A stretch of 64,000 nucleotides of DNA from Lama guanicoe (lineage: Eukaryota), in assembly GCA_013239625.1 (NCBI GenBank), contig MU053881.1, forward strand, positions 14,748,373-14,812,372, read 5' to 3'. Positions 461-57,376 of the stretch are shown piece by piece (within the stretch, counting starts at the first letter, position 1; every line of letters starts with the position of its first letter). Position numbers and translations under genes: made by a program. Below the pieces are notes generated by a model. The model did no database searches and was not told the DNA's origin. It saw only the letters and a list, made by a program, of their open reading frames with translations.

Positions 461-587
461 CCTGTGACTCAAACTGCTCCACAGCCTCTTTCACTGCCTC
501 CTCCGGCTCCATCTCCAATTCCTCGATGTTCTCACGAACGGCTGCATCAAAGGTTTCCTGGGTGATACGCTTGGAGGTCATTGTCAT
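461..587 (-). CDS. ARMC6: Armadillo repeat-containing protein 6, first coding exon (exon 461-630; ATGs at 587 and 581). The gene continues off the left edge.
   Basis: Translates (MT)[41 protein letters not shown], matching the ARMC6 N-terminus. Acceptor cttcttag precedes 630, and a phase-1 donor G|GTAAGG follows 461. Confidence 0.93.
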
Positions 588-2395
588 CTTCTCCTCATGG
601 GGCCAAGGACACCCACTAGTTGCTCCCAAGCTAAGAAGGTAAGAAGAAAGCTTCATCGAGAGGGAGAGGCAACTGAGAACCTGGCCACCATTTAGGGAGC
701 ATCTACCAAGGGGCCACAGCCTACAACCACCCTGGAAAAGTTCTTACAACCTGAGTCACAGGAAAGGGTGATATCCGAACATCCACAGAACATCTAAAAG
801 TACAGAAGAGGGCAGGTAGTTTACCACATTTTATCTAAGAAATGAGGAATGTTAATATAACGTATGTACTTATAGTAAAAAGTAGTAATAATAAAGATAA
901 AATAATATCTTAATAATATTATGTTGTATGTTACATGATTATAATATTATATGTATTACTCATATTTATTCACATATTACTCTGTATACAGTTATAAACT
1001 TTACATGTAATTACATAATGAAATAAAACGTTACAATAGCATATAGTTATACTAATAAAGATTTAAAATAAAAATAATAAGAAGAAGAAGAATGAAAGTA
1101 AATTAAAAGCTAACAGAAATAGTCACCTGTAACAGGAGGTAGAGAAAGGGTAATGAGAGCAGGAACAGAAGTTGAATTATTCTGTCTTAAAGTACTTCAT
1201 TTTACAGGTTTGAATTTGGAACTCAGATAAATGCTTTGTGTGATTAGGAAAATAAATATGCCAAAATAACCAAAATAAAAATAAAAGCAATCCCTAAAAC
1301 TCAAGAGCAAAATGAAACTAATGAATTTAACATTTTATCTTCATGGATCACTTAATGCAATTTTAAAACAGTGATATGACTGTATATTCTTTTTTTTTTA
1401 TAACGGTATATTCTTACTGGGATCTACTCTAAGGATAGAATCGCAAAAGAAAATCTTCAACAATTTTCAGTAATCGTGTTATCAGAAACTATATCAGTAA
1501 TACTATTTGGAAACTATTATAGATGTAGCAAGTAAGTAGTAGCATTTGTATCATTAGGAACCAGCATAAAAGAAAAAAGATTCTAATATAAAATCAAAGA
1601 AGTAAAAACTCAGAACTCCTAAATTTGAACTGGAAATACAAGATGAATCATTACACATTTTCATTTGAGCAAACAAAGAACCAATTTTCTATTAATACGA
1701 ACTGAGAATGCCTGGAGGAAATGATACCACAGCAGTAATGAGCACCCTGAATACCAGCTGTGGTCTCTATATACCATTTTCCACCAAAGAAGCCAGGGGT
1801 CTTGGAATAATGGTTGAGTCTATGTCTGGGTAGGAAATGGGCCAAATGAGCCAGGAGCATCACGTGAGGCCAGAAAGCAAAGAAGCTTCTAAAGACCACT
1901 GGGGTCACATCAAAGGACTCAGACTACCCTAAAGGGCACTAGCTAAGGAAGATGGGATAAGTGAGCATTCAAACAAAACAAAACAAAACAAAACCAATAG
2001 ATACCAAAATCAAAATCTGTGTATTCACAATAGTACTAAAAGAAACTGAGCTCATTCTTCTGAAAGTGGGCATATAAAGAATCCAGCATTAATCCTGCCT
2101 CCCTTATGCAAGTGGACACCAGGTTATAAAGACAGGACAAGGGAAAGTTATTCTTTGCCACAAATCCAGCTAACCAACCAAGACAGGACAGATCTAGATG
2201 ATGATCTCCATGGGCTGCAAAACCATGAGGTGCAAAACTGATGGGGAACCTGATAACAGATGGACAGTACCTGCACCCACTGTGTGATTCCATGTCATCA
2301 AAAGAGAAACTGGAGGCCATCTGCCTCCCAACAAGAATAAAAGGCATCTGTGAAGTCATCTTGCTGAAAACTCAGACCTGAATCTGACTGTGAGT

Positions 2396-2592
2396 CCAGT
2401 GGAACTTTCTACGATGAAGGAGTGTTTTACCTCTGTGCTGTCCAATGTGGCAGCTGCCAGTCCCATATGGGACTGAGCAGGTGAAATGGAGCTAATACAA
2501 CTGAGGAATTGAATATGTACCTTTATTTAATTTTAATTCATTTTAATGTAAATAGCTGCATGTGGTAAGTGGCTTTCATACTGGATAGAGAG
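2396..2592. mobile_element. MER3-like hAT DNA transposon fossil
   Basis: gaactttct..gatg, tgtgctgtccaat, actgaggaattgaat and catgtgg..agtggct motifs. Confidence 0.7.
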
Positions 2593-2759
2593 GCTGTAGA
2601 GCTAATGACTAGTTTATAGGAAATTGAGGACAGACAGACAATACCACAGGGATGTGATCTGCAAAATCCCCATGGAAGGGGCTGGGGAGGGGAACCTCAG
2701 CTACAGGACAAACAGCTAGGGTTTTCAACAAATAAATCGCAAGAACAGTGAAAAGGACT

Positions 2760-3190
2760 GGGGGTCCATCAATAGATGAAAAGATAAACAAAATGTGAAG
2801 TCCATATAATGGAATATTATTCAGACATAAAAAACGAAGCCCTGACACACATGCTATGAGGTAGATGCACTTCAAAAACATCTTGCTAGGTAAAAGAAGT
2901 CAGACACAAAAAGCCACGTGTTGTATGAACCCATTCATATGAAATGTCTAGAACAGGCAAATCCATACAGACGGAAAGTAGATGAGGGCTTACCAGGAGC
3001 TGGGGGAGGTGAAGAGGAGGGGGAATGGGGAGTGACTGCTAATGGGGATAAGGCTTCCTTTCGGGGTGGTGAAAATGTTCTGGAATTAGTGGTGATGATT
3101 ATACAACTTTATGAATATACTTAAAATCACTAAATTGCACACTTTAAGTGGGCGAATATTATGGTATGTAAATTACAGTTCAATTTAAAA
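2760..3190 (+). mobile_element. Old L1M 3' end
   Basis: gtccatcaatagatga, aatggaatatta, gaaaatgttctggaattag and ttatggtatgtaaatta, then an A-rich tail. Confidence 0.75.
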
Positions 3191-3589
3191 AATACTCTTC
3201 CAGTAAAAAACAAACCCCAAATGAAACCCAGCACAGGCACACACTGGAAGCCAGGGAACAGGATCAGTAGTTAGATGACCCAGCACCTTGGGCAGTCACT
3301 TCTCCTTTGCGGGTTTGGGGCACATCATAGAATTAAATAATGCAAACCCCTCAGTAAACTAGCCAATGGTCTTGACAAGAAGGTCCCCAGAGTGCAAGCA
3401 GTTTAACATTTAATATTTGCCACGCTCTCTTTTTAACAAGAGGGCAAACAGGCCTCAGGACCAGAGCCTAACAGAGGTTAACAACTTTTAAAATCTTACT
3501 TGTTTTACTATATCTACCTTGTTTATTGTAGCAATACCATGTTTCCATTTTGGAATTATATTAAGTTTCTACTTAAAATATATCACTTT

Positions 3590-3698
3590 TTATTAATTAA
3601 TTAATTAATTAATTAATTTTAATGGAGTTACTGGGGATTGAACTCAGGACCTGCGTATGCTAAGCATGTGCTCTACCACTGAGCTATATCTTTCCCCC
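3590..3698 (-). mobile_element. tRNA-derived SINE (Vic-1-like, camelid)
   Basis: Reverse complement of GGGG..TATAGCTCAGTGGTAGAGC..ATGCTTAGCAT...GTCCTG.GTTCAATCCCCAGTA plus an (ATTA)n tail. Confidence 0.8.
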
Positions 3699-6228
3699 AT
3701 CATTTTTTAATCTTATAATAAAGTTGCAAGAATAGTACAAGGAGCGCTATCTAGGGGCTATACAAAAGGGTCTTGTAGCTTCACCAATGGTTAACATTTT
3801 GCCATGTTAACCTCTATGTGAGTGTGAGTGTGTGCCTATGTGAGTGTGTGACACATACATCGTTGGAGAGCATGCTTCAGGCATGGGATCCCTTCCCTCC
3901 TACAGATGTCAGCATGACTTTCCCAAGAAAAGGACACTCTCTTATACATTCACAGCACAAATGAAATTTAACACAAGAAATCTAACAATGATGCAATACT
4001 ATTTTCTAACATATAGTACATGATGGACTTTCTTGATTGTCACAATATTGTCTTTTAAAACAATTTGTTTTGTTTTTTTTTTCTGGTCCTGGATCCATTC
4101 CAGAATCACAGAAAGCACAGAAAGTGTGTTACAGGGACAAAGGCACAGGGGGAGCTAGGGCAGTGGTATGGGAATGTGCTACATTGGGCTGTGCGGGAAA
4201 TGAGCCACTCAAGCCCTCGCTTCTCTCTGTGGACGTAGCATTGAATGTGAATATTCCATCTGTGTTTGTGCAGATGCCTGGGGTGGGAAAGGTGGGAGGA
4301 GAGGCTCCAGGGCCAGCCAGGGGGACTCAAATCCCAGGCCCTCCACTTAACCTCACTGTTGGTCAACTCTCTCATTTGTGACACAGGAACAAATACAGAA
4401 TCTAATCATAGGGCTGGAGTGAAAATTCAACCCATCAATTCCTACAAAGCACTTGGAACAGGAATGGCACAGAGCTCAATAAACATCACCTAGTTGTTGC
4501 TCTTGCTTGAGAGGTAATTCGGCCAGTTTATTGTGGGGGTGGAGAACAAAGGCATCAAACACCTCACCTCACTCCCTTGCAGATACCCCTGCCTTTTATT
4601 CCCCAGAACAGGGAGCCTGTTTAGGAGTAGTTAAGAATTTCCAAGATCAAAATTGGAGGAAAAGAAAAAGGGTTTCTGTTTCAAGCTAAAGAGTTTCTCA
4701 GCAGGGAGCCTGGGCTGGTAGTGATGGAATGGTCCTAGCCAGACCTGAGGGGCAGGAACTTCCGGTGTGGGTGCTGCTGGAGGGACTCTGCTCCTGGCTC
4801 TGCCACCAGACATTGCTTTTACCACCCTGGTCGTGCTTCAGACCCAAGTGGGCCAATGGTGACTGGCTACTCTATCACAGAAGTACAGTCCTAAAAGGGG
4901 AATGTCATTGTGCCTACTTTAAGGATGAGGAATCTGAAGCTCAGAGAAACAATAAGAGGCCTGGCCAAGACCCTATCATGTTATCCCATCTCATTAACCC
5001 CTTTCCTCCAGGGACCCTATCACGCTAGCCTGTCTTATTAACCCCTTACCTCCACCTCGGTCCTCTGCAGAGCTTCCGCCAGACCTTCCAAGCCACCTCC
5101 TCCTGGACACCTTCTCTGGCTACTCAGAGTCTGTGTATTCTCAGCTCTCCCCACCCCTACAAGAACCTCCCTCTGTCCAGCCCTAAGATCCCTGAGCTGG
5201 AGAGGCCAGTGTCTGGCTTTGGAACAACCCCTTAGGCCAGTCCCTTAGGTCCAACATAGGCCTAGGGGGTGGGGGCAGGGATGAAAGTAAAGATCTGGAG
5301 TTCATGAGAAAGATGGTGCCTGGGAATGGACATCTGGGAGCCACCTGGGGAACAGCCTAGGCCAGGAGAGGAGAGAAACAGTATTACCAGCCCCCACACT
5401 GCATCCAAGGCATGCTGTAGGGAAGGGAGTTATCAAGGTCCCCAGCTGATAGCTAGCTTCCCTCTCTAAGCCATGGTTTTGCTTATCAAGAAAACGGTGC
5501 CCTGACTCGAAGGACTCTCAATGATTCATCTTCCTCCATCTGCCACACCCACCCTGGTTCAGGGGGCCTCATCTGCTTTCTCCCTGCCATACCCTGTGCC
5601 TCTATTCTCTGCAAGACAGCCAGAGGGGGAATTGAAAGAACAGAGACCACCTCACTCACCTATTCAAAATCCTGCAGTGGCTTCCCAACGCTCTCAGAAC
5701 GAACTCAAGTCTTACCAGGACTTTCCCTGCCTAGACCCTTTCACTTGTGCTTCTCCACTTCTTTTTCATTCTTCCCAGCTATCCAAGGGTCATCATAACC
5801 ACTCTGGTTAAAGCAGCCCCCGCTCTCCTATCGCATTACATTCTTTTATTATTTTAACATTATCTCAACATGGAGAGAAAGGGTTCATCTATTTGCTTTT
5901 ACTATCTAGCCTTCTCCCCAAAGAAATTTGACCTGCATGAGAGCTGGGGCCGTTTTGTTAAACATCTTCCCCACCCCCACCACGGCCTAGGATGGGGATG
6001 GACATGCAGCAGGCACTCAGTACATACATAGGTGATAAATGAATGAATAAATGAAAAGAAAGCGAAGGCCAGGGAAGGTGGGCGATTTTGTCCCCGGGCG
6101 GCTTCCGTAATAGTCTTTCATTACCCAAAACCACGTCCCCGAGCGTCGCTCCACAGCTACTAGACAAACCCCGCGGCGTCCACTCCCTGCCCTGCGCGAG
6201 AAGGGGCTCGGCAGCCGTCATTTCTCAC

Positions 6229-6330
6229 CCGGTCTTCGTGGCCACGTGGGGAAAGGGTGGGGTTCGCGGCTGTCACCGGCTGCGCCGCCTCTGGTCCCTT
6301 TCGGCCGCCGTACGCGCGCAGGCGCGTCGG
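6229..6330 (-). other. ARMC6: Candidate non-coding upstream exon of ARMC6 (5' end not determinable)
   Basis: Minus-strand donor CGG|GTGAGA after 6229, inside the CpG island. Confidence 0.4.
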
Positions 6331-6619
6331 CGCCGCGTCGCCTCGGCTTCCCTTAGTCCCGTGAACCGCTCCTGAGGTGACCAACGGTGACCGCGAGTGC
6401 AGGTAAAGCTGAGAGAGCCAACAGATATGCAACGGCCGCGCCTTAGCCTCCTTTTCTGGGCCGCTTCCCGTTGCCGCCGCCCCCGGCAGAGAAGTTTTTT
6501 TTGCCTCGGGAGTGTCCGCCCTCAAGACGGGGCAGTGCGCCTGCGCAAGGAGGGCTTGGCGGCGGCTGTCTGCGCCTGTGTATCAGAGCTCGGCGGCGGC
6601 CTGCGCCTGCGCGGCGCGG

Positions 6620-6729
6620 CGCTGCGGAGACCGTTGACTCATTTGCATGTCCCCGCCTCGCACGGTGGCGGCGGCGGGTGAGGAACCTGAGGCGGCGGCG
6701 GGGGCGGCTCCGCGCGCGGTGGGCTCGGG
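6620..6729 (+). other. SUGP2: SUGP2 exon 1 (5' leader; start approximate)
   Basis: Donor GG|GTGAGG at 6730 (alternative donor at 6678), inside the CpG island and upstream of the 8108 acceptor. Confidence 0.6.
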
Positions 6730-8118
6730 GTGAGGCCCGGGCCCGGGCGTCGTCGACGGGTGGGCCCCGGAGTGGGGGGCTTGGGCTTGATCCCAGGAAT
6801 CCCAGGTCCCCCCTATGGCGCAGCGGGCTCGGCCCTTGAGCTGCGCTGTGGCCGCGTCCCGCCGGGTCGGCTTGGGGGGCGGTCTTAGGCCTCCCGTGCC
6901 CGACGTCCCCTTTTCTTCGTTCTCGGAGGCCAAGAGGAGGCGGGCCGCGCCCGAAGGGGTTCATTCGTTCATTTGTTCATTCATTCATTCCACCTGAGCC
7001 TGGAGCAGCCCCTCTGGTGGGGCGATAACGGCGGCCGGGCGCTGTATCTGGCTTTTTGCCATTTTTTAAACTGGCTCCATCCCGACAGCAACCCCCACCA
7101 TTAGCTGCTCATTCCGTAGATGGGGAAGCGGAGGCACAGAAAGATTAGGTCGCTTGAATTGATCCCAGGCTACCTGGCTGGGAGACCCTGACCTTCGATA
7201 GCAGAGAACAAGGGGCGCCCCCACGAAAAGGACGGAAGGATAGGAAAAGAGGGTGATGGTTGTAAGAAATGGCTATATGGCTGGGATTGGTTTGGGTTTT
7301 GAAGCTGGGATTTCAAGATGAAAGGGATATCTTGGTGGTTAAGGACACCGCCACTGGCTTTCTCAATGTTGCTTTTCAGTCTCTTTCTTCTCAGCCCTCA
7401 GGGCTTTGTCCCCACTACCAGTGCCCTATTTGCCAGGTTACAGTCTGGGCTGGCTGACCTTGGGTGGGTCACTTAGCCTGAATTTCCCTTTTCCAGTTTT
7501 GTATCTTTTCATTCATAATAGGACCCACTTCTTTACTGGGTTGTTTCCAAGAAGTGAATGGGATCGTGGAAGTCCCTCCCCTGCAGCAAGACCTGACACA
7601 GAGTAAGCTGGTCACTGGTCAGGGATTTTTCCACCCACTCACTGAGAGGCCTCTCTCAGAGGGAAGTCAGCTCTCAGAGCCTCTTCTGTGAAACGGGAAA
7701 ATAGCAGTGGGAAAGATCACATCTTTCCTAACCAGCATTTGCAGGGGTTGTGCTCCTACTCCCCTACACTGTTGTGTTCAGTTACGTGTATTGCTTCATG
7801 CAGTCCTCCAGCAACCCCAGGAGACAGAACTGCTTTTATAGAGCTTCTTTTAAGAGATGAGGAAATAAGCTCCGAGAAGCAGAATAAATTGTCCAGGTTC
7901 AACATGCTTGCCTTGCTCCTCAGCCAACACACACCTTTGAGGTTCATGAGGGCAGAGCTCCCCTCAAATTAATCCTGCCTCCCTCTGAAGTACCGTGCCA
8001 GATTATGGATTACTGCCTTGTTACTTTGAGGATTAGGTGAAACAGAGCAGGCTCTGTGAGCTTTAGTTGTCACTCTTAGTGTCTTTTTTTCCCCCTTCTC
8101 ACTACAGGTCAGAGAAAC

Positions 8119-8239
8119 ATGGCAGCAAGGAGAATCACACAGGAGACTTTTGATGCTGTATTGCAAGAAAAGGCTAACCGATATCATATGGACCCCAGTG
8201 GTGAGGCTGTAGGTGAAGCTCTTCAGTTTAAAGCTCAAG
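8119..8239 (+). CDS. SUGP2: SUGP2 coding exon 1 (exon starts at 8108)
   Basis: Polypyrimidine tract and tacag|, then AAC ATG G. Encodes [40 protein letters not shown]. Phase-1 donor G|GTAAAT. Confidence 0.95.
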
Positions 8240-11043: not shown

Positions 11044-12651
11044 AGCTTCTAAGGACAGTCCCAAGAGCCAGAGCAGATATGTATGATGACATTCACAGTG
11101 ACAGCAGATACACTCTGGGGGGATCTGTAGCTCATCCTCGAGACACTGGGAGAGAAGGCCTGAGAGGTGATGTATTTCCAGGACCTTCCTTCAGATCAAG
11201 CAACTCTTCAGTAAGTGATGACAGCTATTTTCGCAAAGAATGTGGCCGGGAGCTGGAATTTTCCCACCCTGATTCCCGAGACCAGGTCTTTGGCCACCGG
11301 AAATTGGGACATTTCCGTTCTCAGGACTGGAAGTTTGCACTCCGTGGCTCTTGGGAACAAGACTTTGGCCACGCAGTTTCTCAAGAATCCTCTTGGTCGC
11401 AGGAGTATAGTTTTGGTCCTTCTGCATTACTGGGGGACTTTGGTTCCTCCAGGCTGATTGAGAAAGAGTGTTTGGAGAAAGAGAGTCGGGATTATGACGT
11501 GGACCGTCCAGGGGAGGCAGACTCTGTGCTCAGGGCCGGTGGCCAAGTCCAGGGCAGAGGCCGAGGTCTAAACATTGTTGACCAGGAAGGTGCCCTCCTA
11601 GGAAAGGGGGAGACCCAAGGCCTGCTCACGCCTAAAGCGGGGGTCGGGAAACTTGTCACGCTGAGAAATGTGAGCACCAAAAAGGTACCCACTATAAGTC
11701 GTATCACTCCCAAAACTCAGGGCACTAACCAAATCCAGAAAACCACCCCAAGTCCTGATGTGACCCTGGGGACAAACCCAGCGACAGGAGATATCCAATT
11801 CCCCACTCAGAAAATCCCTTTGGGGCTTAATCTGAAGGATATTCGGCTCCCCAGAAGAAAGATGAGCTTCGACCTCATAGATAAGTCTGATGTTTTTTCG
11901 AGATTTGGGATAGAAATAATCAAATGGGCAGGATTCCACACCATAAAAGATGATGTTAAATTTTCCCAGCTTTTCCAGACTCTCTTTGAACTTGAAACCG
12001 AAACCTGTGCTAAAATGCTTGCCTCATTCAAATGTTCTTTAAAACCAGAGCACAGAGATTTTTGCTTTTTTACTATCAAATTTTTAAAGCACTCTGCTTT
12101 GAAAACTCCCAGAGTTGATAACGAGTTTTTAAACATGCTTTTAGACAAAGGTGCTGTGAAGACCAAAAATTGCTTTTTTGAAATCATAAAGCCCTTTGAT
12201 AAATACATAATGAGGCTTCAAGACCGGCTTCTGAAGAGTGTCACACCACTGCTCATGGCCTGCAATGCCTACGAGCTGAGTGTCAAGATGAAGACCCTCA
12301 GTAACCCTCTGGACTTGGCTGTTGCCCTGGAGACCACCAATTCTCTCTGCCGGAAGTCTTTAGCCCTTTTGGGACAGACGTTCTCCTTGGCCTCTTCTTT
12401 CCGGCAAGAGAAAATCTTAGAAGCTGTCGGCCTCCAAGATATAGCTCCCTCTCCTGCCTCATTTCCAAACTTCGAGGACTCTACTCTGTTTGGAAGAGAG
12501 TACATTGATCACCTGAAGGCCTGGCTGGTCAGCAGTGGGTGTCCACTCCAGGTTAAGAAAGCCGAAACCGAGCCAACTCGAGATGAGGAGAAAACGGTTC
12601 CTCCTGCCAAACCCGAAATTCAGGCCAAGGCTCTGGGTGGTCTGAGTGATG
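11044..12651 (+). CDS. SUGP2: SUGP2 coding exon 2 (1608 nt, phase 1-1)
   Basis: Lies within the 557-aa ORF (ELLRTVPRAR...ALGGLSD). Acceptor tttcag| and donor G|GTAAGG. Confidence 0.96.
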
Positions 12652-15285: not shown

Positions 15286-15670
15286 CCTAGATACATTTTA
15301 TCTTTCTATTTTCCCCTTAATATTGTGAACATTCAAGTTGAACTATATGCAAAAGGTGGTACGGAGTTGCTACACACCATTTCCTTCTATAGACTAGACT
15401 GTGTATATATTGCTCTGCTCAGTCACTGTAACTTTGTGACTGTTTCTCTCCTAGTGATTATGCTGTTACAGCTTTTGAGAGGATAGTTTGCATATTGGTT
15501 TCTAGAATAACAGGCCCTTTTCCTCCTTTGAATGCTTGTCTCTTGGGAATGAGGATTTCAGCTGCTGGTGCCTGCTTAGGTTCTATCCTAAGCCCCTGAT
15601 GCTGTCCTGGGTTTCCCAGGCCCTGTGTGGTCAAGTGTGTTTCTCAGAAAAGCCTTTCTATATGTTCCAG

Positions 15671-15791
15671 TGGTCCCCCAGCGAGCAGATCACAAGGTGG
15701 TGGACACCATTGACCAGCTGGTCACACGAGTCGTTGGAGGCAGCCTGTCTCCCAAAGAGAGAGCTCTTCTTAAGGAGGACCCTGCTTACTG
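15671..15791 (+). CDS. SUGP2: SUGP2 coding exon 3 (start of SURP motif 1)
   Basis: ttccag| VPQRADHKVVDTIDQLV...KEDPAY TG|GTATTT. Phases fit both neighbours. Confidence 0.93.
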
Positions 15792-17267
15792 GTATTTATT
15801 TATTTGTTTGTTTGTTTATTATTTTTTTGAGAATAAATTTGTACGTTTATGTAGGTTGTATAAACAGTAACATCCCCAAGTGTATCGATTTCTTCTGATG
15901 TGTAACTTAGACTCCTGGTTTGGTACAGCCCTTCAGACATCCATTGAAAAGACAGTTTTTCCTTGTACGTTAAATACTGGGTCTCTCCATATCGTTTTAT
16001 ACCTCCATTCCTCACTGATTGATACAGTTTTTCAGTTGACACTGTTCCTTTTTCCCAAGGGATTCCTGAGCACTTCTGATAGTTGATGTTGCTCTTCTCA
16101 ATCCCTCCCATAAAGTGCACAGCAATGTTTTGTGTTGCTGTGATGATGTCTAGAGCTGAGGGTGAGAATGCTTATTTTGAGTGGTGGTGTCAGTCAGTGG
16201 GGAGTGCATAAGGATGGGTCAGATTCACATGGGTTCAACCTCCAGCCCTGCTGCTGACTTGCCCTGTGGCTTCTTGTGCGGGTGTGGAGCTCCTTGTCCC
16301 TGCTGTGCTGGTTTGAGGATGACATGAGAGGTGCATGCAAAGAGCAAGTGTAAGATGAGGAATATGTCACAGCGGTTGTGATTTCTTGCTACTATTGGCT
16401 AAACTGTCTTTTCCTTTTGCCTTATTGTCTCTTCACCTGAACAGAACAACTTTTTAAAATTAAAGTTTTCACCATAAATATAGTACTTGCTTATTAGAGA
16501 AAGTAAAGAAGAACAGAAAGTTGGGGGAAGCCACCCATGTGCCTAGTAATGTCCGTTGACATTTTGGGGTGTTTGTTTCTAGTCATTCTGCTCATTAGGG
16601 ACTGCTTGGTTTTTAACATAGTTGTGTTACATGTGTAACATAGCTGTGATACAATATACCCTGCTTCTTTTAGATAATAGGAAAATGCTCATATTCTCTA
16701 TTCTTTGTAAACATTTCAGGTGGCTGCATTTACTGATCCATAGAATAGGTGATCAGTTTATTTAGCCATTCCTCTCTTGTTGGTCTTTGGGAATGTTTTT
16801 GATTGTACACTATTTAAAATATTTTTTCTTAGAATAGCTTAATGTGTCACACTTTCATGTGTGTTTAGGATTATCTCTAGATTAGATTGATGGAAGTGGA
16901 AAAGTTTTATGCTTTGTTAACTTAAAAAAAAAGATCAAAGGGGCATATGCCATTTGTAAAAATAGAGAATAGTAAAAAGGCAAAGATGGAGTTACTCAGA
17001 ACTCTCCCATTTTTTTCCCTACAGTGTGTGCTCAGTTGTTGTGTCCTATTTTAAACTTAATATAATTGTCCTTATTATCGCCGAGTGTGTACTATTCCTT
17101 CATACACGGTACCCTACACTTAACCACTGCTGATTGGTGGATTTTTACATTCTAATAACATGATGAACAAAGTTTTGCTTTTATTTCTGTCAGTTTATTA
17201 CAGTAATATCTGGGAATGAAATTGTTGGTTTAAAAGCAAAGCTCGCTTTAGAGGCATTTGATCTGTC

Positions 17268-18869: not shown

Positions 18870-19046
18870 TTAAAAAATTTTATTTGTTAATATTTTATTT
18901 ATTTATTGTTTTATTTAATTATTTTATTTTGGTGGGGGGTGGTAATTAAGCTTATTTATTTTTTTTCGAGGAGGTACTGGGGATTGAACCCAGGACCTCA
19001 TGTATGCTAAGCATGCACTATACCACTTGAGTTATACCCTCCCTGC
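18870..19046 (-). mobile_element. Vic-1-like SINE with target-site duplication
   Basis: tRNA-like head plus a ggtaatta tail segment, flanked by aaaaatctcatt. Confidence 0.85.
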
Positions 19047-21847: not shown

Positions 21848-24094
21848 GAGCAGCAGCTCTTAGTTCCTCATCAGAGTCACTTAAAACACAGGGAGTGAAA
21901 CATAAAGATGGAAGACAATATACCAAGCAAATGCTACTGAAGAGAAAGGAGATATGGAAATGTTACTTCAGACAAAACAGAAAAACATTCAAAGGGGCAA
22001 AAAGAGGTTACTGACAAGGGAAAGTCATCATGAGCTACAATGGTTGGGAATCTCACTGCTGGAACCACACGTGGCTATGAGCTATGTAAACATTTGGAAG
22101 TATAAGAGGAACTGGAAATCTTTACTGTGGTAGGAGACTTGAATGTACTTTCCCTGAAATGGGTAGATGTCATCCAAATAAAAGTGTGGAAAATTTAGAA
22201 TACAGAGAATGATCATAAATGAATAGAGATGATGTACTAATCATTGTTGAACAGGCAGTATTCAAAGCATTTTCCTTAAAATGAAAAGTATATAACTCAA
22301 GCCTCACAAGTAGGTTATTATTATTATCTGTCCCTTACAGGTGAAGAAACTGAGGCATAGAAAAATTCATAAATCTCACAGCTAGTAAGTGGCTACACTG
22401 GGATTTGAACCTGGCAGACTAGCTTGGGAGTATTCTGTGCTCTTGATGTGCTCCATTAGAACTGGGGGAGATGGATTTGTGACTCATGTTCTCAGACTGC
22501 ACTTGGCATCAGAACCATCCAGGGGAAAGGGACTTACATTGTGGGATCCAGGTCACCTGGGCACTGACTGTGCTTTCTGCCCTGGATGAGGAGTGGCCTT
22601 GCTGCGGCTGCGTTTGACTTGAGAACCATGTGTTGATCAGCTTTCCCTTATGTGGGAACCCTTGCTTGTTAGGGTTCAATCTTGCAGGATGCTGCTGTTG
22701 GCCAACAGAGTGTCCAGGGCAGTGGAGGAGCCAGCACACAGCCTGTTTCCTCACATCCAGCCAGACCTTAATTGTGCAGAGAGCATCAACAGGAGCTTCA
22801 TATGGAGCTGCTCACCAGGGACATGCTGCATCACATGGTGCTGCCAGCATCCTGCTGTGCACTGCCACCTCGCTTCCAATCAGCTTCTGTTATTGGTAAT
22901 TGGGAACCTCATCTAATGTGATCTCAACATCACAAAAAGCCACATGAAGTATTGCTGTATTCACCAAACAATACTCATTCTTTAACACAGACTGAAAATG
23001 AACATTCACAAAAAACTTGTTATGAATGAGGACATGAAGAGAGTTACATACAGCACATCCCAGGAAAGGAATTACGTGGGCCACTTTATGCAATGCATAA
23101 AAGTTGCAACCAGCAACAGCCAAAATAAAACAGGCTTGTAAATAACTTTTGACTGAAAGAGAATTAGAATTGAAATTAAAAGCTCTTCAGAAGGAAGTAG
23201 CAGGGAGAGCACTGCATATGGAATGTAGCCGCAACAACAGCTGGGGGAAAAGTGCAACCTTGGGTGTGTTTATCAGAAATAGACCGAAGATAAGCATTCA
23301 ACAACTCATGAAGCTAGAAAGAAATGGTGAAAAAAGGCCAGAGACTAGAAGGGAAGAGTTAATAGAGATGAAAGAAGGTGCTAATGAAATGGTCAGCAAA
23401 GTAAATAAAGTGAAAGTCCCTCTCCATGCTCCTTTCTAACCCATTCCTCAGAGCTAATTCTTAAGTTTGCTTTGTATTCTTTCAGCCTATGTGAAAAAGG
23501 CAAATATATGTGTATGTACACAGTGCAGCTTCACATGGTCTGTATCGATGTTGATACTCTTCTATAGCTTGCTCTCCATGCTGTGGATCTCTTTCTATGT
23601 CAGTACTTGTAACTCAAACTCCTTTTTTCTATACTGTTCTCATTGTGACTCTGACATGTGATTTCACAGCAGTGCCACACTGGCCTCAATTCAGTTAAAA
23701 GATCACTGAGTGTCCACCATCTGAAGGGCATCACCTCCCAGAAACAGTGTCCAAGAACAATGCTTGCCACTCCCTAGTAGGACAGTGCTTCCATGGTTCC
23801 AGGTGACTGGTTCGTGAGGCCACCAGGAGCTGCAAGCTCCTTCATGGCTGCTGATGACAGGAATTGAGGAGGAATCGACCAGTGCTCCATCATATCTCCT
23901 GGTTCCCCTGTAGTCACTCTGAGCAGGATGGATGGCCAGGGCCCAGCTCTGGGTACATGTTGGAGCCAGGCAGGGACTCTCCAAAAGCAGGGAGGTCGCC
24001 AAGTACAAAAGGTTTACGGAAATGTATTTACAGCAACAATTTGGTCATGCTGGTGTATTCACAAATGTCCTGCTGTGCGTGTTTTGTTATATAG

Positions 24095-24582
24095 GTTTTT
24101 GTCTGATGATAATAGTCTGGAGTATAAATATTACAAGCTGAAGCTGGCAGAAATGCAGCGGATGAGCCAGACTTTGCCAGGATCGGATCAGAAGCCGATG
24201 GCGGCCGAGTGTGCAGTCCGGGCCATGCTGTATGCCCGGGCAGTTCGGAGCCTCAAGAAGAGGCTCCTCCCGGGTCGGCGGCGGGGGCTGCTTCGAGCTC
24301 AAGGACTCCGGGGCTGGAAGGTGAGGAGAGCAACCACCGGGACCCAGACCCTCCTCTCCTCAGGCACCAGGTTGAAACACCATGGCCGGCAGGCTCCAGG
24401 CTTCTTGCAGGGAAAGCTGCCTCAGCCAGATGGAAATGATGCTGCCAAGGATTGTCCACCAGATCCTGCCAGACCCTCTCCTCGGGACCCCAGCCCAGAA
24501 GCCTCAGATCCATCCCTGAAGCCAGTAGGCGTGGATGTCTCTGAAGCCCCTCAGACTTCCTCTCCCTGCCCGTCTACTGACA
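24095..24582 (+). CDS. SUGP2: SUGP2 coding exon 4
   Basis: atag| FLSDDNSLEYKYYKLKL...SSPCPSTD A|GTGAGT. Confidence 0.95.
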
Positions 24583-25567: not shown

Positions 25568-25634
25568 GCCCCATAATGTTCACATGGGAATTGACAGCTC
25601 AGAACTGATCCATGACAATTGCTTTGTTTTGTAG

Positions 25635-25746
25635 TTGATGTGAAAACAATGGAGACTGCAGAGAAACTTGCTAAATTTGTTGCTCAGGTGGGACCAGAGA
25701 TTGAACAATTCAGCATAGAAAACAGCACCGATAACCCTGACCTGTG
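25635..25746 (+). CDS. SUGP2: SUGP2 coding exon 5 (SURP motif 2)
   Basis: ttgtag| (I)DVKTMETAEKLAKFVAQVGPEIEQFSIENSTDNPDL TG|GTACGT. Confidence 0.95.
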
Positions 25747-27654
25747 GTACGTACCCATCATGCCCCTTTGACTTGAGTGTTCACCCCATGAGTGTCCTGA
25801 GAGCCCACAGGACAGCCTGGCAGATGCACTCCTGCCCCACAGATCAGCCCAGGATAAATCATGACTTCACTTCCACTGAGCTCAGGGCTGTTAGGGAGAA
25901 GCATCTGTTTGGGTTATTGGGAGATCGGCCCTCATCTGGGGCATCAGGGAAGCCTCCCTGGAGGGGAGCTGGAGCTAGATCCAAAGACTCAATGGATGTT
26001 TGCCAGGGCAAGGGGGAGAGAACACCTCAGCAGAGGGACTAGTATGTTCCCTAGAACCTGTGTGGAGGCAAAGAGGAGGGTGTGTCCTTGCCTGTGAGTC
26101 TGAGGAGGAGGGTGGACACTGTCCCTGGTCTTGCTGGCAGCTCTGGGTAGGATGAGAATGTGCTGCTCATGTACTATAATGGATGGGTCCTGGTCTGGGT
26201 GTGAGCAACAAGCATCTCCACGCATGGGGGCCTGGCACCCTTGTGCCAAGAGGGGGCACCATTGTCCTTTCCATTCCTCAGATAGGGTGGCTGTTCAATG
26301 CTACGCAGCCCAAAGGTGACAGAACCAGGGCTGGAGCCCACTCTGCCTGTGGGGTGCAGGTTCTCCTTCAGGGGAAGGCCCCCTAGGGCCATGTGTTTCT
26401 GGTACTGAGCCATAACCCTGCTGGGCTCCCCGTGAAGTGAGTGGGGTTCCCGTGCTCTGTGGATTGTATCCTATAGCTGGCTAGGGAATCTGGACCCTTG
26501 CCCTGCTCCAACATGCTAGACACTTGTGCCTTAGTTTAATTAAGAATACAGATAAAAATTTTACATTTCCTGGAGCATTTCTGGGGCCCAGCGGTAACTA
26601 AGCGTGCGGTTCTAGCTTGTTTGGGACCTTGAGTGAGTCATACACTGGGGTTGCCTCCTTCCTGTGGGACTCAGACCAGCTACATGGAGCACTGATGGCC
26701 TTGCTGGACTTCAGCCTGCTTCTGCCTTTTACAGACCTGGGGGCTGCTGGGCCTTATAGACCTCAAAGTTGGGCTGCCCACGTATGAGGGACCTTACACT
26801 GGCAGGACCAGGCGAAGGGGACAGCTCAGTGAAGGGCAACCAGGAGCATTTTATCAGTTCTCTTTTTTTCCCCAGTGAAAACTACAGTTTGAAAGAGAAC
26901 TCTGCATTATCCTGGGCACTTGACACTGCCAGGGATTGGGGTTATTCCTTTCCCTCTGACAGCCTTTTCTGAGCAGTGTTCCTCAGATAGCACTTTCTCC
27001 TCCTTTCCCACATGGAGACCCCAGGAAACTACAGTAGCATCAGATGAGGTGATTTACTCTGTCCCCCAGTGCTCGTAGAATAGTTTGAAGAAGACTTCAC
27101 CAAACAGCACACCTGTTTAGTAAAGGCCAAATGACTTTGTGTTTTCTTTTCCTTTAGAAAATTTTTATCTCTAAGGTGCTCCTTAGCTGCTTGAGTTAAT
27201 TCATTTTGTGTTTGTGGTTGTCATCAATTTGATACACACTCAGGTTCCTTTGTTTCTGCTGAAATCAGTTTGGGTGCTTTTTTTTCACATCCTTTTAAAC
27301 AAGTAAATAAGTACAGCATTTGTGTGGCTCTAAAGTAAAAATTAGAAGAGGTAAGTTCAGAGAAGTCTCATGCCCTCTACCTATCAATGGGATACCATTT
27401 TCATTCATTTCTCTGTGTGTGTGTGTGTGTGTGTATGTATGTTCCCTCATAGCTCTTACACCAATAAGTAGTCGTCTATATGTAATAGACTCTTTTGCAT
27501 CTTGCTTTTTTCCCTTTACAGCATATCTAGAAGTTCCCCTCTGCCTGTCCCACCTATACCCTCATCTCTGTTCCATTGTGTCATCCTCCACATGCAGCCA
27601 CACCTGTTCCCAGTGTGCTAGAGAGGCATGCCTTAGTTTAAGATAGATTTTTTT

Positions 27655-30564: not shown

Positions 30565-31082
30565 GTTTCTACATGACCAAAATAGTTCAGCTTTCAAATT
30601 CTATCGAAAGAAAGTATTTGAACTGTGCCCATCGATTTGCTTTTCATCATCTCCGCTGACCCTCCAAGCCAACGAGAGCGCTGATTCTCAGGAGAGCCCC
30701 CTAGAACCCATGGAAGGGGAAGGAGAGTTTGAGGACGAACCCCCTCAGCATGAGGCCGAGCTGGAGAGCCCAGTGATGCCTGAGGAGGACGAGGACGAGG
30801 AGGACGAAGAGGAGGAGGATGAGGAGGGGGGTGAGGAGGTCCCCACTCCTGGAGAGGCCTCCAGGCCGATGGGCGGGTCTACCAAGTCCGAGTGCTCTGA
30901 GGGCAGCCCCCCTGCTGATGGCCTCCTGAGTGAAGTGGCCGAGGATGGCCCTGCTGGTGCGCCCGCCCTGTCACAGGCTTCCTCAGGGGCCTGCTTTCCC
31001 CGGAAGAGGGTCAGCAGCAAGTCATTGAAGGTCGGCATGATTCCAGCTCCCAAGAGACTATGTCTCATCCAGGAGCCGAAAG
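30565..31082 (+). CDS. SUGP2: SUGP2 coding exon 6 (end of SURP2, acidic tract)
   Basis: cccag| FLHDQNSSAFKFYRKKVFELCP...LIQEPK G|GTGAGT. Confidence 0.95.
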
Positions 31083-32921
31083 GTGAGTACACAGCCAGCC
31101 ATCAGCACAGCGCCCTCAGAAGGGGTCTTCTGTTTAACACCTGAAGAGGAGTCATGGTGCTTATTGTGGGCCATGGAAAATCGTGGAGACGTTCCTGACT
31201 GCTTTGAAGAATTTACTGGCCTTCAGCCCAGGTTCAGCTGTGAGATGACCAGCTGGCCCCTGTCACCCTTCCTGCCTCTGATTGCTTTGGCTAATGTGGA
31301 CGTTACCTTTCAGAATCCCCCCTGGGCCAACACAACATAGGGTTCTTTGGTCTTGAATTTTTAACCTAAAATAGTGCTACTAGTTTTGTATACCAGTCCA
31401 AAATGTTCATGAGAAACTGATGTTTCTAGTTGGTCTAAAGTCGGCACTCTAGAGGGACACTGCATGTGGCTTCTGGCGCCCCACATGCTGCTTGTTATTT
31501 TACATAATTGCTCAGATTCCAGCAGAGGAATCCTGGCAGTGGAAGGAATGGGCCTGGGTCACCTTGTGGCTGTTTGCTGTCTGTGATCTTGAGGGGTGCC
31601 CAGCTTTCTGAACCCCGCAAAGGCCCCAGGGTAGTGACGATGAGACAGGAGGATGTGGAGCAGGACTAGTCTCGGGTAGTCGTTAGTGGGAGCTGTGCAC
31701 TCCCTGCTCTGCCTGCCTTGGCCATGGAAGGCCATCTCCTGCTCCTGTGTTGGGAGGGTCAATCTTCTTGAGATACAGTTTACTAGCAACAAAATGCATC
31801 CTTTTCAAAAAGTGGACAGTGCAAGGAGTTTTGACAAAGGTACATAGGCATGAACCGCTCCCAGTACGCCAGAGGTGGAGCCCATTCCAGAAATGTCTCC
31901 GTGTTCCTCTTGGGTCTCCTCCTCTACCCAGCCCTGGCAGCCACTTTCTGGCTTTGTGGTTTTGCTTTTTCTAGAATGTCAGTTGGTGCATCATCATGTG
32001 CTGCCTTTCGTTAGGCTGCCCGCTGCCCACCCAGGTGTCTCCACACAGCCAGGCCTGGGCCATGTTTCATGTATGGGGCTGATGCTTCAATACTTGTGTG
32101 TGAGGCAGTTTTGGTGAACAGCACTCCGTCGTGTGTGTAGAACCTGTGTGTTTCACGTTATTGAGGCCATCACATTCACCCCCACTAGTGTCAGTTTCTA
32201 CTGCTGATGAAACAGTTCTCGTGGTTTGTGTTTAGAAACCTTGGCATTGCAATGGATTACTAACTATTCTGCCAAAATCTTGTCCTTCAGAACTTAGCAC
32301 AAAGGGTGGTAGCACATCAGAATGACTGCTAAGGTGGTCTCCATGGGGGGAACGTGGAGTTCTTTCTGTTTTAGAAGCTCTCAGTTGCTTGATAGGGTGA
32401 TTGATTAGACAATACCAGACCTGCTGATCTACCCTGTGATAACATGTGTAAATATGGTAATAACTATAATAATAATGTGATTTGGCGCTCTGTAGGAAAA
32501 GCATGTTTGTTTTACTGGAAAGTTACACGTGGACTTTAATTATCTATGGAACAGTCCCAGAGACACAAGGAGGGCACAGTGTTGCAAATAGTTCATTTGT
32601 TGAAACAAAATATATTCCTACAGTCATGGAAAATGATCCCCGCTTCCAGTCCTTCATCATAAATGTGGGAGTCACACTTAAGTAGACTCTACCACAGTGA
32701 GGCAGCCCTCAGTTGAGGCGGTGTTCTGCGTCTGTGCTCTGTGGGTCACACGATTCCTGAGAGGAGCGAGGGCCAAACGGCTGGTGTTGTGGTGCAGCTC
32801 TGAGCCACCTTCTGTCAGCAGAGGGGCTCTTAGCCAAAACTGCAGCACCCTCATTTTCTTTCTTAGTAACTTGGGGAAAGCGCATATATATGTGTGTGTG
32901 TGTATTTCTTTTGTCTTCTAG

Positions 32922-32983
32922 TTCACGAACCAGTTCGAATTGCCTATGACAGGCCTCGGGGTCGTCCCGTGTCCAAGAAGAAG
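32922..32983 (+). CDS. SUGP2: SUGP2 coding exon 7
   Basis: ttctag| (V)HEPVRIAYDRPRGRPVSKKK |GTGAGC. Confidence 0.93.
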
Positions 32984-35879
32984 GTGAGCATGACTGTGAA
33001 TCCTCCCGTGTGACGTAGTCAGAGTTTGCCAGCGTTTCAAAGGATACTGTGGCTGTGACTAAGCTATACTCATACTTCAGGCCAGGTGTCAGTTTTTCTC
33101 TCAGGGGCTTTTCTCTCCAGGGGCTTCTTAAAACTGTTTTGCTTTGTCCAAGGAGGAAGTAATTAGTCCATTTAATGGATGGGTGAGTCTGAAGAGATGA
33201 ACAAGATGTCTCAACCATTGAGAAGTTCAGATTTAGTGAACTACAGTTGTGATTGAAAGAGTGCACTACTTTGCTAGTAAGTGGAGCACGTGCTCGTGTG
33301 TGTTCATTAACTGATCAGCACCTCCTATGTGCCCAGCCCATCTACCTACCTAGAGGCAGCAGTGAGCAGGGCTGGCAGCAACAGAAATGTACAAGATCCA
33401 GTCATCGGGGTGCTGTGGGTGCAGAGAAGCAGGTCAAAGGGAAATGGGGTATAATGTGGGTTGAGGGGTACTCTTTAACCAGGGGGGCCTAGGAGAAGCC
33501 TCAGGGCAGTCATATTTCAGCAGGGGCCCTTTATGCCTAGAGTGGAGTGATGGGGGTGGTGAGGTGAGGAAGTAGAGGTGCAAGCACCCAGGGCACTTCA
33601 AGGTCTGTAGATGGATGTCAGCACCGTGGCCCCTTTTCTCGGAGACACTCTCAGGGAACCATGGTGGTGATTTGAGTGGAAAGCATAGCCACTTTGGCTG
33701 CTGTGTTGAGAGCAACCTGTGGGATCAGGGGCCAGGCAGACTCGGGAGACCAAGTGAAGTTAGTGGGACGTGCTGATGGGTTGGATGTGGAACAGAAAGT
33801 CACGAATCCAGGGTGACTCCAGGGTTGTCAGCCTGGGCAGTTATGAGGATGCAGCTGCCATTGACTGAAATGGGGAGTCCCTCTGGGGGGGCAGGTCATT
33901 GGAAGGAGATGGGGGCACACTCCAAACAGCTGATTGGACGTCTGTCAGAGCAGGTGAAGCTGAGCAAGGTAACCAGGGCTATATGTGGGGACATCTAAGG
34001 ATCCCACAGATCATTAGAGATCAGGAAGGTAAGTAAGGTAGCTGGTGAGGTCTCTACTGGTGTCAGATTGGGAGGAAAGCCCGTGTAGTGGCTCAGACCT
34101 AAGTGCATTGTGTCAGTCTCAATGGCCAGAGGAAGTATCAGTGTGACCCCAGTTACAGTTGGGAGCAGGGACCTTCCTGTGCCCGAAGCTTGTGGTCCTA
34201 AATGGTGTGCTGGCTTTTAAGCTGAGATAGCACCCGGGTACCCTTCTGGTGGCTTGGGTGAAGGCGCAGCCTGGTGAGGGGACAGCTATTTCAGGCTCAC
34301 CTAATCTTGGCATTTGAATCCTGAAGTTCCATTTGTACATCTGTAAAGTGGGGCAGCTATACCAACCATGCAGGTAGGAGATACCTTGAGGATTAAACAA
34401 AATGCATGTTAACTTGGTGTGTAGCCACTGTCCTGCAAAGTGGGTGTTTTTTTTGGGGGGGTGACTGCAGGCAGGTAGGAGACCTCCCCTGCAGCTCTCT
34501 GTGTGCACCTCAGCCTGGCCCATGGTGCACGGCTTTTCTCCAGCCCCAGGAGACCAGGCAGGGTGATTCTTAGACACAAATTGAAAACTCAGAGAGATCT
34601 GTCCAGGCTGAGCTGATCCCTGTCCCTCCCATTGCTCCCACCTGAGCGGCTTACCTGACATTTGGGGAACCCGTGGCCAGCCTTTCCTCTGCCTCCCCCA
34701 CCCTCTTCCCCTCCCGCATTTGTTCCCTACTCAGACCCCCTCTGCTACTCCAGCTGCCTTGATCAGGACAGAGGGGCTCTCTCCCCAGGAGTGTGTAAGA
34801 CCCTCTTGGTCTCCTCAGTCTGTGTTGAGTGTTAAGTAAATCGGTAAGAGAAACACGGGCTCAGGCAGCAGGGACTGAGCCCCCAGCTGCCCAGCAGTTC
34901 CAGCACACTGTGGATGCTGATGAATATTCATGATTGAATGGAAGTCCCCTCTGCTCATCCTAGGCAGGCTCCTCCTCTAGAGGCCTCCAGGCCTCTTAAC
35001 TTATCTTCCCGCAGCCAGCTCTGGAGCCCAGATCTCCTCCAGGTCTCCTTACCGCTGCGCCTGTAAGGTCCTGCCCAGCTGCACTAGCTCCCAGTGGGGT
35101 CTGCTCTGTGGTAGACATGGACTCCCGAGTCCAAGTAAAACCCAGTCCTTGTCCTTAGGAAGCTCTCAGAGCTCCAGACCTGGGAAGGAACAGACAGACA
35201 GACACACATGAGTCAATCAGGTTTGCTGAGCAGTGCCCAAAGGCAGCCAGGGAAGTTTCCAGGCTGGAGTCACACTGCTCATAGTTCTGGAAGCCCATAG
35301 GAATGAATGAAGCAATCGGGTGACGGGGCAAGGGGTCAAATCGGAAGGACCGTTTGAGCCAGTTTTCTGCACAGCCTCTCTCCACCACCTATCTGGCCCC
35401 TCCTGCCTCAGTCCTGCCTCTGCTCTGACTCCTGCACTCCAGGGCCTTCTTTCCTCAAGGCCTGTGCCCTGTTTCCTCAGCCTGGGATGTGCCCTCTGGT
35501 TATCACAGGGCCACACTATTTATCCAGGTCTCCACTCTGGGTTCTTCCTACTGACTCTTTGGTGCCAGGACCCACATCCCCTCATGAAGTTGAACTCACA
35601 GTCTTACCATGGCAGTAAGAGTGGTCACGGTGAAGCCTAAGAGGCTGATCCAGCTCAGTTCTGTAGGGGCACCTGAGGCGGGTGACCTCCAATCTTTAGC
35701 AGCCTCAACCTACCCAGGGAATGTTGCCAGGAACTGGGGAGGTGACCATGGCTTGATCTTGAGCGTCTGGGGAGTCAGGGAGGCATTAGGGGTATTAGTA
35801 CTGGGGCATGTCTAGGTGCAACCCAGGGCAGACCCTCGTTCTTCACTCCACCCTACGTGCCACTCTTCTCTCTCCTCAG

Positions 35880-36016
35880 AAACCCAAGGACTTTGATTTC
35901 ACTCAGCAGAAGCTGACCGACAAGAACCTGGGGTTCCAGATGCTACAGAAGATGGGCTGGAAGGAGGGCCACGGCCTGGGCTCCTGTGGGAAGGGCATCA
36001 GGGAGCCCGTCAGCGT
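35880..36016 (+). CDS. SUGP2: SUGP2 coding exon 8 (G-patch)
   Basis: ctcag| KPKDFDFTQQKLTDKNLGFQMLQKMGWKEGHGLGSCGKGIREPVS GT|GTATGC, a canonical G-patch motif. Confidence 0.96.
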
Positions 36017-36653
36017 GTATGCGGCGGGTGCTGGGGGCCAAGGGTGGGGATGGGCAGCGTGCCTGGGGAGATGAGGCTTTCTGTGGGATTCTTGTCCTCA
36101 GTCCTTTGGTCATCCTGATTCTTGGTTTCTCTCATGTTGAATGTGGCTTGAAGCAGATCATTGACACATGCAGGTGTTCACACAACTCCTTGCACTTGAG
36201 TAGACTTGGTCCCTGGCATTTGGCCACATTCATTATTGTCATAAAAGCGGAGTAGTAATACTGGGTAGTTACACTAAGAACCGCTTACTTCCCTTTTCCG
36301 AGAACCCATACGCAGACTAGCCTGGGTCCAGGGTAGAACATGGCCCAGAGTTAAAGCCCCATTAACATCCAACAAGCATTTCAGTTAAAACTGAGCTTAT
36401 CACCTGCTGGGGAGGCGTTCTGCTGTAATCAGGGGCTGGTTTCTGAGCATGCCCCTCAGAAGTTTCACATACCTGCACAGGTGAGTACCCCTTGTTCCCC
36501 ACAGTGAATCATGTCTTTACTTTCCCTTTCCCTTGCTGTCACTGTTATGTGTCCCTCATACCTCTGTCCCACTCTGACTGCTCGGGCTGTTTTCGGTCTC
36601 CTGGTGGCCAACTCTGGGCTCAGGTGTGGCTAACTCTCCATTTTGCTCCTTAG

Positions 36654-36774
36654 GGGAACTGCCTCAGAAGGGGAGGGGTTGGGTGCCGACGGGCAGGAAC
36701 ACAAAGAAGACACGTTTGATGTGTTCCGTCAGAGGATGATGCAGATGTACAGACACAAACGGGCCAACAAATAG
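36654..36774 (+). CDS. SUGP2: SUGP2 last coding exon
   Basis: cttag| GTASEGEGLGADGQEHKEDTFDVFRQRMMQMYRHKRANK*. The TAG is followed directly by GTATGT. Total CDS is 3288 nt. Confidence 0.95.
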
Positions 36775-57294: not shown

Positions 57295-57376
57295 TTTTTT
57301 TTTTTTTTGGTTGGAGGTACTGGTAATTGAACCCAGGACCTCGTGCATGCGCTCTACCACTGAGCTATACCCACCC
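57295..57376 (-). mobile_element. Vic-1-like SINE
   Basis: ggaggtactgg..attgaacccaggacctcgtgcatg..ctctaccactgagctatac. Confidence 0.8.

Follow-up and report, generated by a model that had tools for sequence, protein, structure and literature searches.

The closest described counterpart of the element studied here is a Pfam family, PF27652, which bears the name ARMC6_N in Pfam 38.1 (as given in the ESM Atlas listing) and which sits at the extreme N-terminus of two proteins, ARMC6 and SUGP2, alike. Only ARMC6 figures in the name of the family; in SUGP2 the module has diverged from its ARMC6 counterpart in charge and, in placentals, also in length. Here we analyse a 64,000-nucleotide (nt) stretch of the Lama guanicoe genome (assembly GCA_013239625.1, contig MU053881.1, positions 14,748,373–14,812,372 of the forward strand; hereafter the window), in which ARMC6 and SUGP2 lie head to head and each opens its coding sequence with an exon for this module. 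The two exons descend from one ancestral exon, as shown by their homology and by the phase and position of the intron that follows. We propose, with a probability of about 0.8, that an inverted copy of the first coding exon of ARMC6 was taken into SUGP2 and diverged there.

Precomputed annotations place PF27652 on every listed relative of the ARMC6 peptide (the best 120 of 264 at an expectation value (E) ≤0.01, from 273 candidates) and on all 41 relatives of the SUGP2 peptide (52 candidates), so the likeness of the proteins can already be read from a public database. PF27652.1 is likewise precomputed on a Vicugna pacos protein that is 100% identical to the SUGP2 exon of the window (P0126) and on a camel protein that is 98% identical to the ARMC6 exon (P0003). 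With an older Pfam copy lacking PF27652, the 40-residue peptides returned no family even at E 10. Nothing seen for this family calls the SUGP2 match a copy from the adjacent gene, the family description and seed lying outside what was seen. We found no paper describing a likeness between the ARMC6 and SUGP2 exons. The literature naming both genes, judged by titles and the beginnings of abstracts, consists only of genome-wide association, copy-number or fusion lists, and no mention of PF27652 or ARMC6_N was found in the literature searched by name. The available portion of a review of ARMC proteins likens the N-terminal region of ARMC6 to Inscuteable and does not mention SUGP2; that of a 2024 proteasome-interactome paper (PMC11374303) states that the function of ARMC6 is unknown and does not mention the likeness to SUGP2; and that of a mouse Sugp2 paper contains nothing on the SUGP2 N-terminus. 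Literature searches on sugp2 in zebrafish or Xenopus found nothing useful. What is new here is the copied-exon interpretation and the case itself; the likeness of the domains was already implied by Pfam 38.1.

Two homologous first coding exons

The two 40-residue peptides are encoded at window positions 581 to 461 on the minus strand (ARMC6) and 8119 to 8239 on the plus strand (SUGP2). They share 16 of 40 residues in an ungapped alignment and 21 of 41 with two gaps (BLASTP E 3e-12). Their Smith–Waterman score of 89 was reached by none of 20,000 shuffles of one peptide (shuffle mean 20.7, maximum 47). The initial annotation of this DNA, made from the letters alone, had reported the same identities, together with synonymous codon differences within the shared RITQETFDA block (CGT/AGA, ACC/ACA, GAA/GAG, ACC/ACT and GCA/GCT). 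Recomputation reproduced the identities as stated, and all five codon pairs are correct. Its central claim, that the exons are homologous, is borne out by the BLASTP and shuffling statistics together with the shared intron position and phase.

That annotation had also proposed a profile search from ARMC6 N-termini, which does detect SUGP2. A hidden Markov model (HMM) built from 31 ARMC6 proteins, with no SUGP2 in the seed, was scored on 133 SUGP2 sequences. It matches 100 of them at E≤1e-3 with Z=20000, that is, in a proteome-sized search, and 41 with Z=1.84e9. Platypus SUGP2 scores 54 bits, the Vicugna SUGP2 protein 38 and the SUGP2 peptide of the window 45. The match is weak in 23 of the 133 sequences and absent in 10; murid rodents have E 1–11. 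Within the window only these two sites match the camel ARMC6 protein (tblastn), and a six-frame search of the entire 2.05 Gb assembly with the ARMC6 peptide, in which counts are lower bounds, likewise gives no others. Genomic read-through fragments of the two families part ways directly after ...SQG or ...AQG.

The identity of the genes, named in the initial annotation as ARMC6 and SUGP2 in head-to-head arrangement, is secure. On the ARMC6 side the peptide matches Camelus ferus ARMC6 (P0003) at 98% identity, and on the SUGP2 side it matches isoform X1 of Vicugna pacos SUGP2 (P0126) at 100%; residues 11–1109 of this isoform are encoded on the plus strand of the window between 8107 and 36771 in nine tblastn blocks. 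Outside the module the proteins are unrelated, as had been said. A Pfam scan finds Arm repeats (E 4.6e-18) on the camel ARMC6 orthologue P0003, and Surp (E 1.2e-18) and G-patch (E 4.7e-16) domains on P0146, a near-identical SUGP2 orthologue. The window holds only the first coding exon of ARMC6. The features of the two genes are placed as follows.

461–581, minus strand: ARMC6 module coding sequence (ARMC6_N); ATG at 581, base 461 opens a split Gly codon, GT donor at 460–459; 98% identical to Camelus ferus ARMC6
461–630, minus strand: ARMC6 first coding exon (exon 2); acceptor AG at 632–631, upstream open reading frame at 598–584, ATG at 587, ATG at 581
6001–7200, no strand: single CpG island between the genes; presumed shared bidirectional promoter
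6647–6677, plus strand: 3' end of SUGP2 exon 1; in-frame ATG (MSPPRTVAAAG), gtgagg donor after 6677; matches the start of Vicugna pacos SUGP2 isoform X1 (P0126)
8108–8239, plus strand: SUGP2 exon 2, the first coding exon in most models; acceptor cactacag at 8100–8107, ATG at 8119, module coding sequence 8119–8239, gtaaat donor at 8240
11044–12650, plus strand: SUGP2 exon 3, large; phase-1 acceptor, G(8239)+AG = Glu
15670–36771, plus strand: remaining SUGP2 coding exons, as approximate tblastn blocks at 15670–15864, 24069–24581, 25634–25753, 30566–31081, 32909–32983, 35877–36017 and 36655–36771

The homologous exons are exon 2, the first coding exon, in both genes, and a splice acceptor precedes each ATG. 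Both run 121 nt from the ATG to a phase-1 donor, the last exon base lying 1 nt past the Q40 codon, so that one extra G precedes the GT donors gtaagg (ARMC6) and gtaaat (SUGP2); both join phase-1 acceptors. In SUGP2, exon 3 starts at 11044 behind the acceptor tttcag, reads AGCTTC and completes a split codon G+AG (Glu). The following ARMC6 exon is outside the window, about 0.66 kb to its left; there cacag is followed by GAGTCAAT and the split codon is G+GA (Gly). These junctions rest on the sequence and on orthologous protein models. The equal length of 121 nt and the phase-1 donors noted initially thus stand and the phase-1 acceptors are confirmed, with the length in ARMC6 counted from the conserved Met only, because a further in-frame ATG (MTMTSK...) lies at 587, two codons before the conserved ATG at 581. 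The closest annotated camel ARMC6 protein starts MTMASK, corresponding to ATG 587.

Start usage varies among annotated mammalian ARMC6 proteins, which begin MASK..., MTMASK... or MKMASK.... The ARMC6 exon also contains a four-codon upstream open reading frame on the minus strand at 598–584 (ATG AGG AGA AGA TGA), which overlaps the in-frame ATG at 587. On the other side, the ATG at 6647 in SUGP2 exon 1 is in frame with exon 2 and accounts for the 14-residue extension of predicted SUGP2 isoform X1; if it is used, the module is no longer at the extreme N-terminus.

Direction and age of the copy

A profile built from 17 sequences of both kinds (profile A1) was searched against 1.84 billion cluster representatives and matched 1008 of them at E≤1e-3, the best 150 of which were listed. 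A Pfam scan of the 40 listed matches of at least 137 residues assigned 19 to ARM-repeat proteins and one to SUGP2; the other 20, many of them partial, had no match. No third architecture was found among these 40 scanned carriers, and the sole protein longer than 600 residues among the best 150 of the 1008 matches is a SUGP2. Carriers could be named for 14 of 20 representatives: a characiform fish, a bird, Branchiostoma, Saccoglossus, Apostichopus, Tubulanus, Nematostella, Papilio, Monosiga, Salpingoeca, Fabomonas, Ancoracysta, the green alga Micractinium and a pelagophyte. With animals, choanoflagellates, algae and other protists represented, the ARMC6 module is about as old as the eukaryotes.

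SUGP2 orthologues were searched for with the conserved central region as query, and the best 120 of 211 matches were listed. ARMC6_N is called on 87 of these 120, from placentals, three marsupials, platypus, many birds and a turtle. The other 33 are models that start downstream of the exon or have diverged N-termini, the latter still recognisable in rodents, lagomorphs, a shrew and two birds. A tree was built from 24 named modules over 38 columns, including six SUGP2 rows and leaving out the placental SUGP2 rows, which carry indels, and unnamed rows. All six SUGP2 rows fall into a single clade (support 100/100); its stem measures 0.97 changes per site, where the median ARMC6 tip is 0.11.

Because the module is eukaryote-wide in ARMC6, seen in amniotes only in SUGP2, and there forms one long-stemmed clade, ARMC6 was the donor. 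SUGP2 as the recipient, as first suggested, therefore stands. So does the suggestion that the event is old, which agrees with the divergence of third codon positions (12 of 39 identical), the confinement of the similarity to the exon and the spread of SUGP2 copies across amniotes. The idea of tracing the first appearance in SUGP2 succeeded in part: the copy has been present at least since the amniotes, and the exact date is not fixed by the tree. A DAVV/DAAV residue considered as a dating character was rejected, both states occurring within teleost ARMC6.

Some genomic read-through fragments of non-vertebrate ARMC6 (such as P0232, P0240, P0250 and P0281) continue after Q40 with QV... instead of QG[KRN].... 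This suggests a phase-0 intron one base earlier than in vertebrates, and possibly intron sliding.

A probable inverted copy at the DNA level

Similarity between the two sides is detectable in DNA only between 581–544 and 8119–8156, the first 38 coding bases (74%, E 0.01, blastn). The introns, untranslated parts and promoter showed no similarity between the two sides, and no inverted repeat links the flanks. Third codon positions, with 12 of 39 identical, are near random, which marks the event as old and rules out recent gene conversion. The initial annotation had SUGP2 capturing a copy of its neighbour's promoter along with the exon. That part finds no support: there is no DNA similarity beyond the first 38 coding bases and there is one CpG island, not two.

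The SUGP2 copy ends exactly at the ARMC6 donor, keeps its phase and lacks the ARMC6 continuation GVDLSNIVK, which is encoded by the next ARMC6 exon. These three features make genomic copying more likely than retrocopying. The opposite orientation of the exons across the CpG island would fit a local inverted duplication.

We suggest the following course of events. The ancestral exon would have been the N-terminal module of ARMC6, about 40 residues long and as old as the eukaryotes. An inverted duplication at the DNA level, no later than the first amniotes, would have placed a copy of this exon across the promoter region. The copy, bringing its start codon and phase-1 donor, could be spliced in phase onto the large next exon of SUGP2 and would so have become the SUGP2 N-terminus. 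Since then it has changed fast, its acidic surface turning neutral or basic, with the gain of one residue and the loss of another in placentals and decay of the motif in murids; the start codon, RITxETFDA and the hydrophobic residues of helix 1 have otherwise remained.

The CpG island at 6001–7200 has a CpG observed/expected ratio of 0.63–1.17 and a GC content of 0.54–0.77; most flanking 200-bp windows have a ratio below 0.5. It lies 1 kb from the SUGP2 module exon and 5.4 kb from the ARMC6 exon, and SUGP2 exon 1, which ends at 6677, is within it. ARMC6 probably starts inside this island as well, in which case the two genes would share a bidirectional promoter.

Divergence and constraint of the module

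The module is the best-conserved part of ARMC6. In pairwise comparisons of 31 proteins, identity averages 0.70 within the module and 0.43 over the remaining sequence, and 12 of the 24 invariant alignment columns fall within the first 46 residues. The conserved N-terminal block of ARMC6 extends to about residue 50 (QGVDLSNIVK), crossing the exon boundary. Because it does so, the functional unit in ARMC6 may exceed the piece that SUGP2 received.

In SUGP2, with mean identities taken over amniotes, the module (0.63) ranks between the 170 residues that follow it (0.50) and the central domain (0.83). Among non-placentals the module stands at 0.81 against 0.58 for the adjoining 170 residues. Helix 1 (MA.RRIT.ETFDAV.QEK.KRY) is nearly invariant from birds to mammals. 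The protein-level constraint inferred in the initial annotation thus holds for SUGP2 at a moderate level (0.63 versus 0.50) and is lost in murid rodents.

The platypus, marsupial, bird and turtle modules of SUGP2 align to ARMC6 without gaps, and the platypus module is identical to that of a teleost ARMC6 at 22 of 41 positions. Because non-placental SUGP2 aligns gapless, the two compensating gaps seen between the window peptides are a placental novelty; they are present in this pair, as reported, but were not part of the original copy. The charge has also changed. Where ARMC6 has the acidic stretch ENxEEFEM, non-placental SUGP2 has EKVKRYRM, and the net charge by count is about −8 for the ARMC6 peptide of the window, about −1 for its SUGP2 peptide and +1 for platypus SUGP2. 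Positions kept in both families are M1, R5, I6, E9, T10, F11, D12, A13, E17, M24, Q36, F37 and Q40.

In murid and cricetid SUGP2 (P0314–P0328), the conserved Phe has become Leu, three loop residues are lost and the match to the ARMC6 HMM is gone. This change is a lineage-specific decay of the copied module.

Predicted fold and possible function

An AlphaFold2 model of the ARMC6 peptide, computed from a mixed alignment of 92 rows, is a helix hairpin (residues 8–22 and 26–38) with a predicted local distance difference test score (pLDDT) of 92.6. A Foldseek search of the Protein Data Bank (PDB) with the module model gave no match at E≤0.001. A sequence profile search of the PDB with the module found no solved structure, its best hit (E 0.22) being an unrelated designed protein, and a search of the ESM Atlas with the 40-residue peptide gave no usable match. 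Full-length ARMC6 matches only ARM and importin-like chains in the PDB, from residue 71 onward. A UBA/CUE-like three-helix domain was considered and dropped, as Pfam gave no match on the 40-residue peptides (E 10) or at the N-terminus of the full-length proteins (E up to 1) and Foldseek returned none.

We infer that ARMC6_N is a small N-terminal protein-binding unit, which would be essential to ARMC6 and partly retained in SUGP2, where helix 1 is constrained. In some lineages the SUGP2 copy may be decaying towards a mere leader that supplies a start codon and a donor. For most amniotes the chances are about even that it retains a binding role in altered form. A bolder version, in which ARMC6_N is a portable docking module and ARMC6 and SUGP2 share or compete for one partner, or the basic SUGP2 copy pairs with the acidic ARMC6 copy, is speculative and on present evidence unlikely. 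A shared partner would make sense if SUGP2 both inherited the module and is transcribed from the same CpG island. Were this bolder version true, the link between ARMC6 and the chromatin-associated splicing repressor SUGP2 would be one of function in addition to transcription, and the role of the orphan ARMC6 would gain a first handle.

Alternative explanations

Several observations weigh against the copied-exon reading or limit its reach. No duplicated flanks survive, so that it is the donor-site coincidence and the orientation that point to the mechanism, and the evidence for promoter sharing is the single CpG island. The 38 columns of the tree leave open where the SUGP2 clade attaches to the ARMC6 tree. 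Amphibian and fish SUGP2 were not among the best 120 of 211 matches, and the time of origin is for that reason bounded only from below, at amniotes or earlier. A model of the first 213 residues of SUGP2, computed from 31 SUGP2 sequences only, has a mean pLDDT of 51.9 and a single helix at 3–21, the second helix being absent; this poor model may reflect a shallow alignment or a real loss of the hairpin. No partner of the module is known for either protein, and the available part of a G-patch preprint that is rich in SUGP2 interaction data does not name ARMC6 in its main text. A module-specific function of SUGP2 is doubtful in some lineages, because 33 of the 120 listed sequences have no Pfam call, some isoforms start downstream and murid sequences match the ARMC6 HMM at E 1–11 only.

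The last of these points lead to the most serious alternative, which accepts the same origin and holds that the SUGP2 copy is mostly a vestige, kept for its start codon, the context of that codon and the splice donor. In murid copies F11 and part of the loop are gone, and the ARMC6 HMM scores them at E 1–11; Pfam makes no call on the 33 entries just mentioned (best 120 of 211); predicted SUGP2 isoforms begin at a Met in exon 3; the SUGP2-only model has a pLDDT of about 52 and no second helix; and the stem branch after copying is long. A mere vestige would, however, hardly leave the module above its adjoining 170 residues, as it still is both in amniotes (0.63 versus 0.50) and in non-placentals (0.81 versus 0.58), or helix 1 nearly fixed from birds to mammals. 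We regard this as a possible account, and a less probable one than a retained role. A copy made through RNA, for instance from a chimeric or read-through transcript or by partial retrocopying of ARMC6 mRNA, would be in keeping with the lack of flanking DNA similarity that could prove a genomic copy. It sits poorly with a copy that stops at the ARMC6 exon boundary with the donor kept at the homologous base and phase, and with the missing VDLSNIVK continuation, which a retrocopy would be expected to carry; we consider it improbable.

The remaining explanations concern the homology and its direction. A transfer from SUGP2 to ARMC6, or a third gene as the source of both, can draw on the open attachment of the SUGP2 clade in the 38-column tree. 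It is close to refuted by the presence of the module in choanoflagellate, algal and other protist ARMC6, by SUGP2 copies being seen in amniotes only (among the best 120 of 211 matches), by the lack of a third architecture in the 40 scanned carriers and by there being two copies only in this genome. Chance, convergence of acidic helical N-termini or recent gene conversion has in its favour only the short length of 40 residues, and the statistics refute it: E 3e-12, 0 of 20,000 shuffles, profile matches from an independent seed and the same intron position and phase speak against chance and convergence, and third positions identical at 12 of 39 together with the separate SUGP2 clade speak against gene conversion. 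An inverted copy of the ARMC6 exon into SUGP2 remains the explanation that we favour.

Other features of the window

Five Rfam tRNA matches of 35–52 bits lie in introns or intergenic DNA, at 18969–19041 (minus), 42774–42844 (minus), 45569–45640 (plus), 53865–53937 (minus) and 57312–57374 (minus). This being a mammal, they are probably the heads of tRNA-derived short interspersed nuclear elements and not tRNA genes. Downstream of SUGP2, the stop-to-stop listing of the window has no long open frames between 37000 and 64000, a region in which HOMER3 might lie, going by the human gene order.

Comparison with known systems

ARMC6 is conserved across eukaryotes, and no part of it is under stronger constraint than the N-terminal 40–50 residues. 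With a copy of this segment present in SUGP2, a nuclear protein that has been studied more closely, there are two entry points to what the module binds. For genome evolution the locus offers a clean example, open to dating, of head-to-head genes in which, as we read it, an exon with its start codon was copied in inverse orientation to the far side of the CpG island they share, then diverged fast and decayed in particular lineages. It does not establish a new principle; it is a well-documented example of exon duplication or shuffling in an unusual geometry, and its value lies in the interpretation.

Among relatives of SUGP2, its paralogue SUGP1 has the same SURP and G-patch architecture and is not known to have such an N-terminus. 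As in exon shuffling between phase-compatible introns, a whole exon with its donor has been reused in an unrelated gene and phase 1 has been kept. Unlike the internal symmetric exons of that process, the exon here carries the start codon, the genes involved are head-to-head neighbours and the copy lies inverted across a CpG island. The locus likewise resembles head-to-head gene pairs with a bidirectional CpG-island promoter, in that the genes are divergently oriented with one island between them and SUGP2 exon 1 lies inside it. Such pairs normally share only their regulation, whereas ARMC6 and SUGP2 share a homologous coding exon too.

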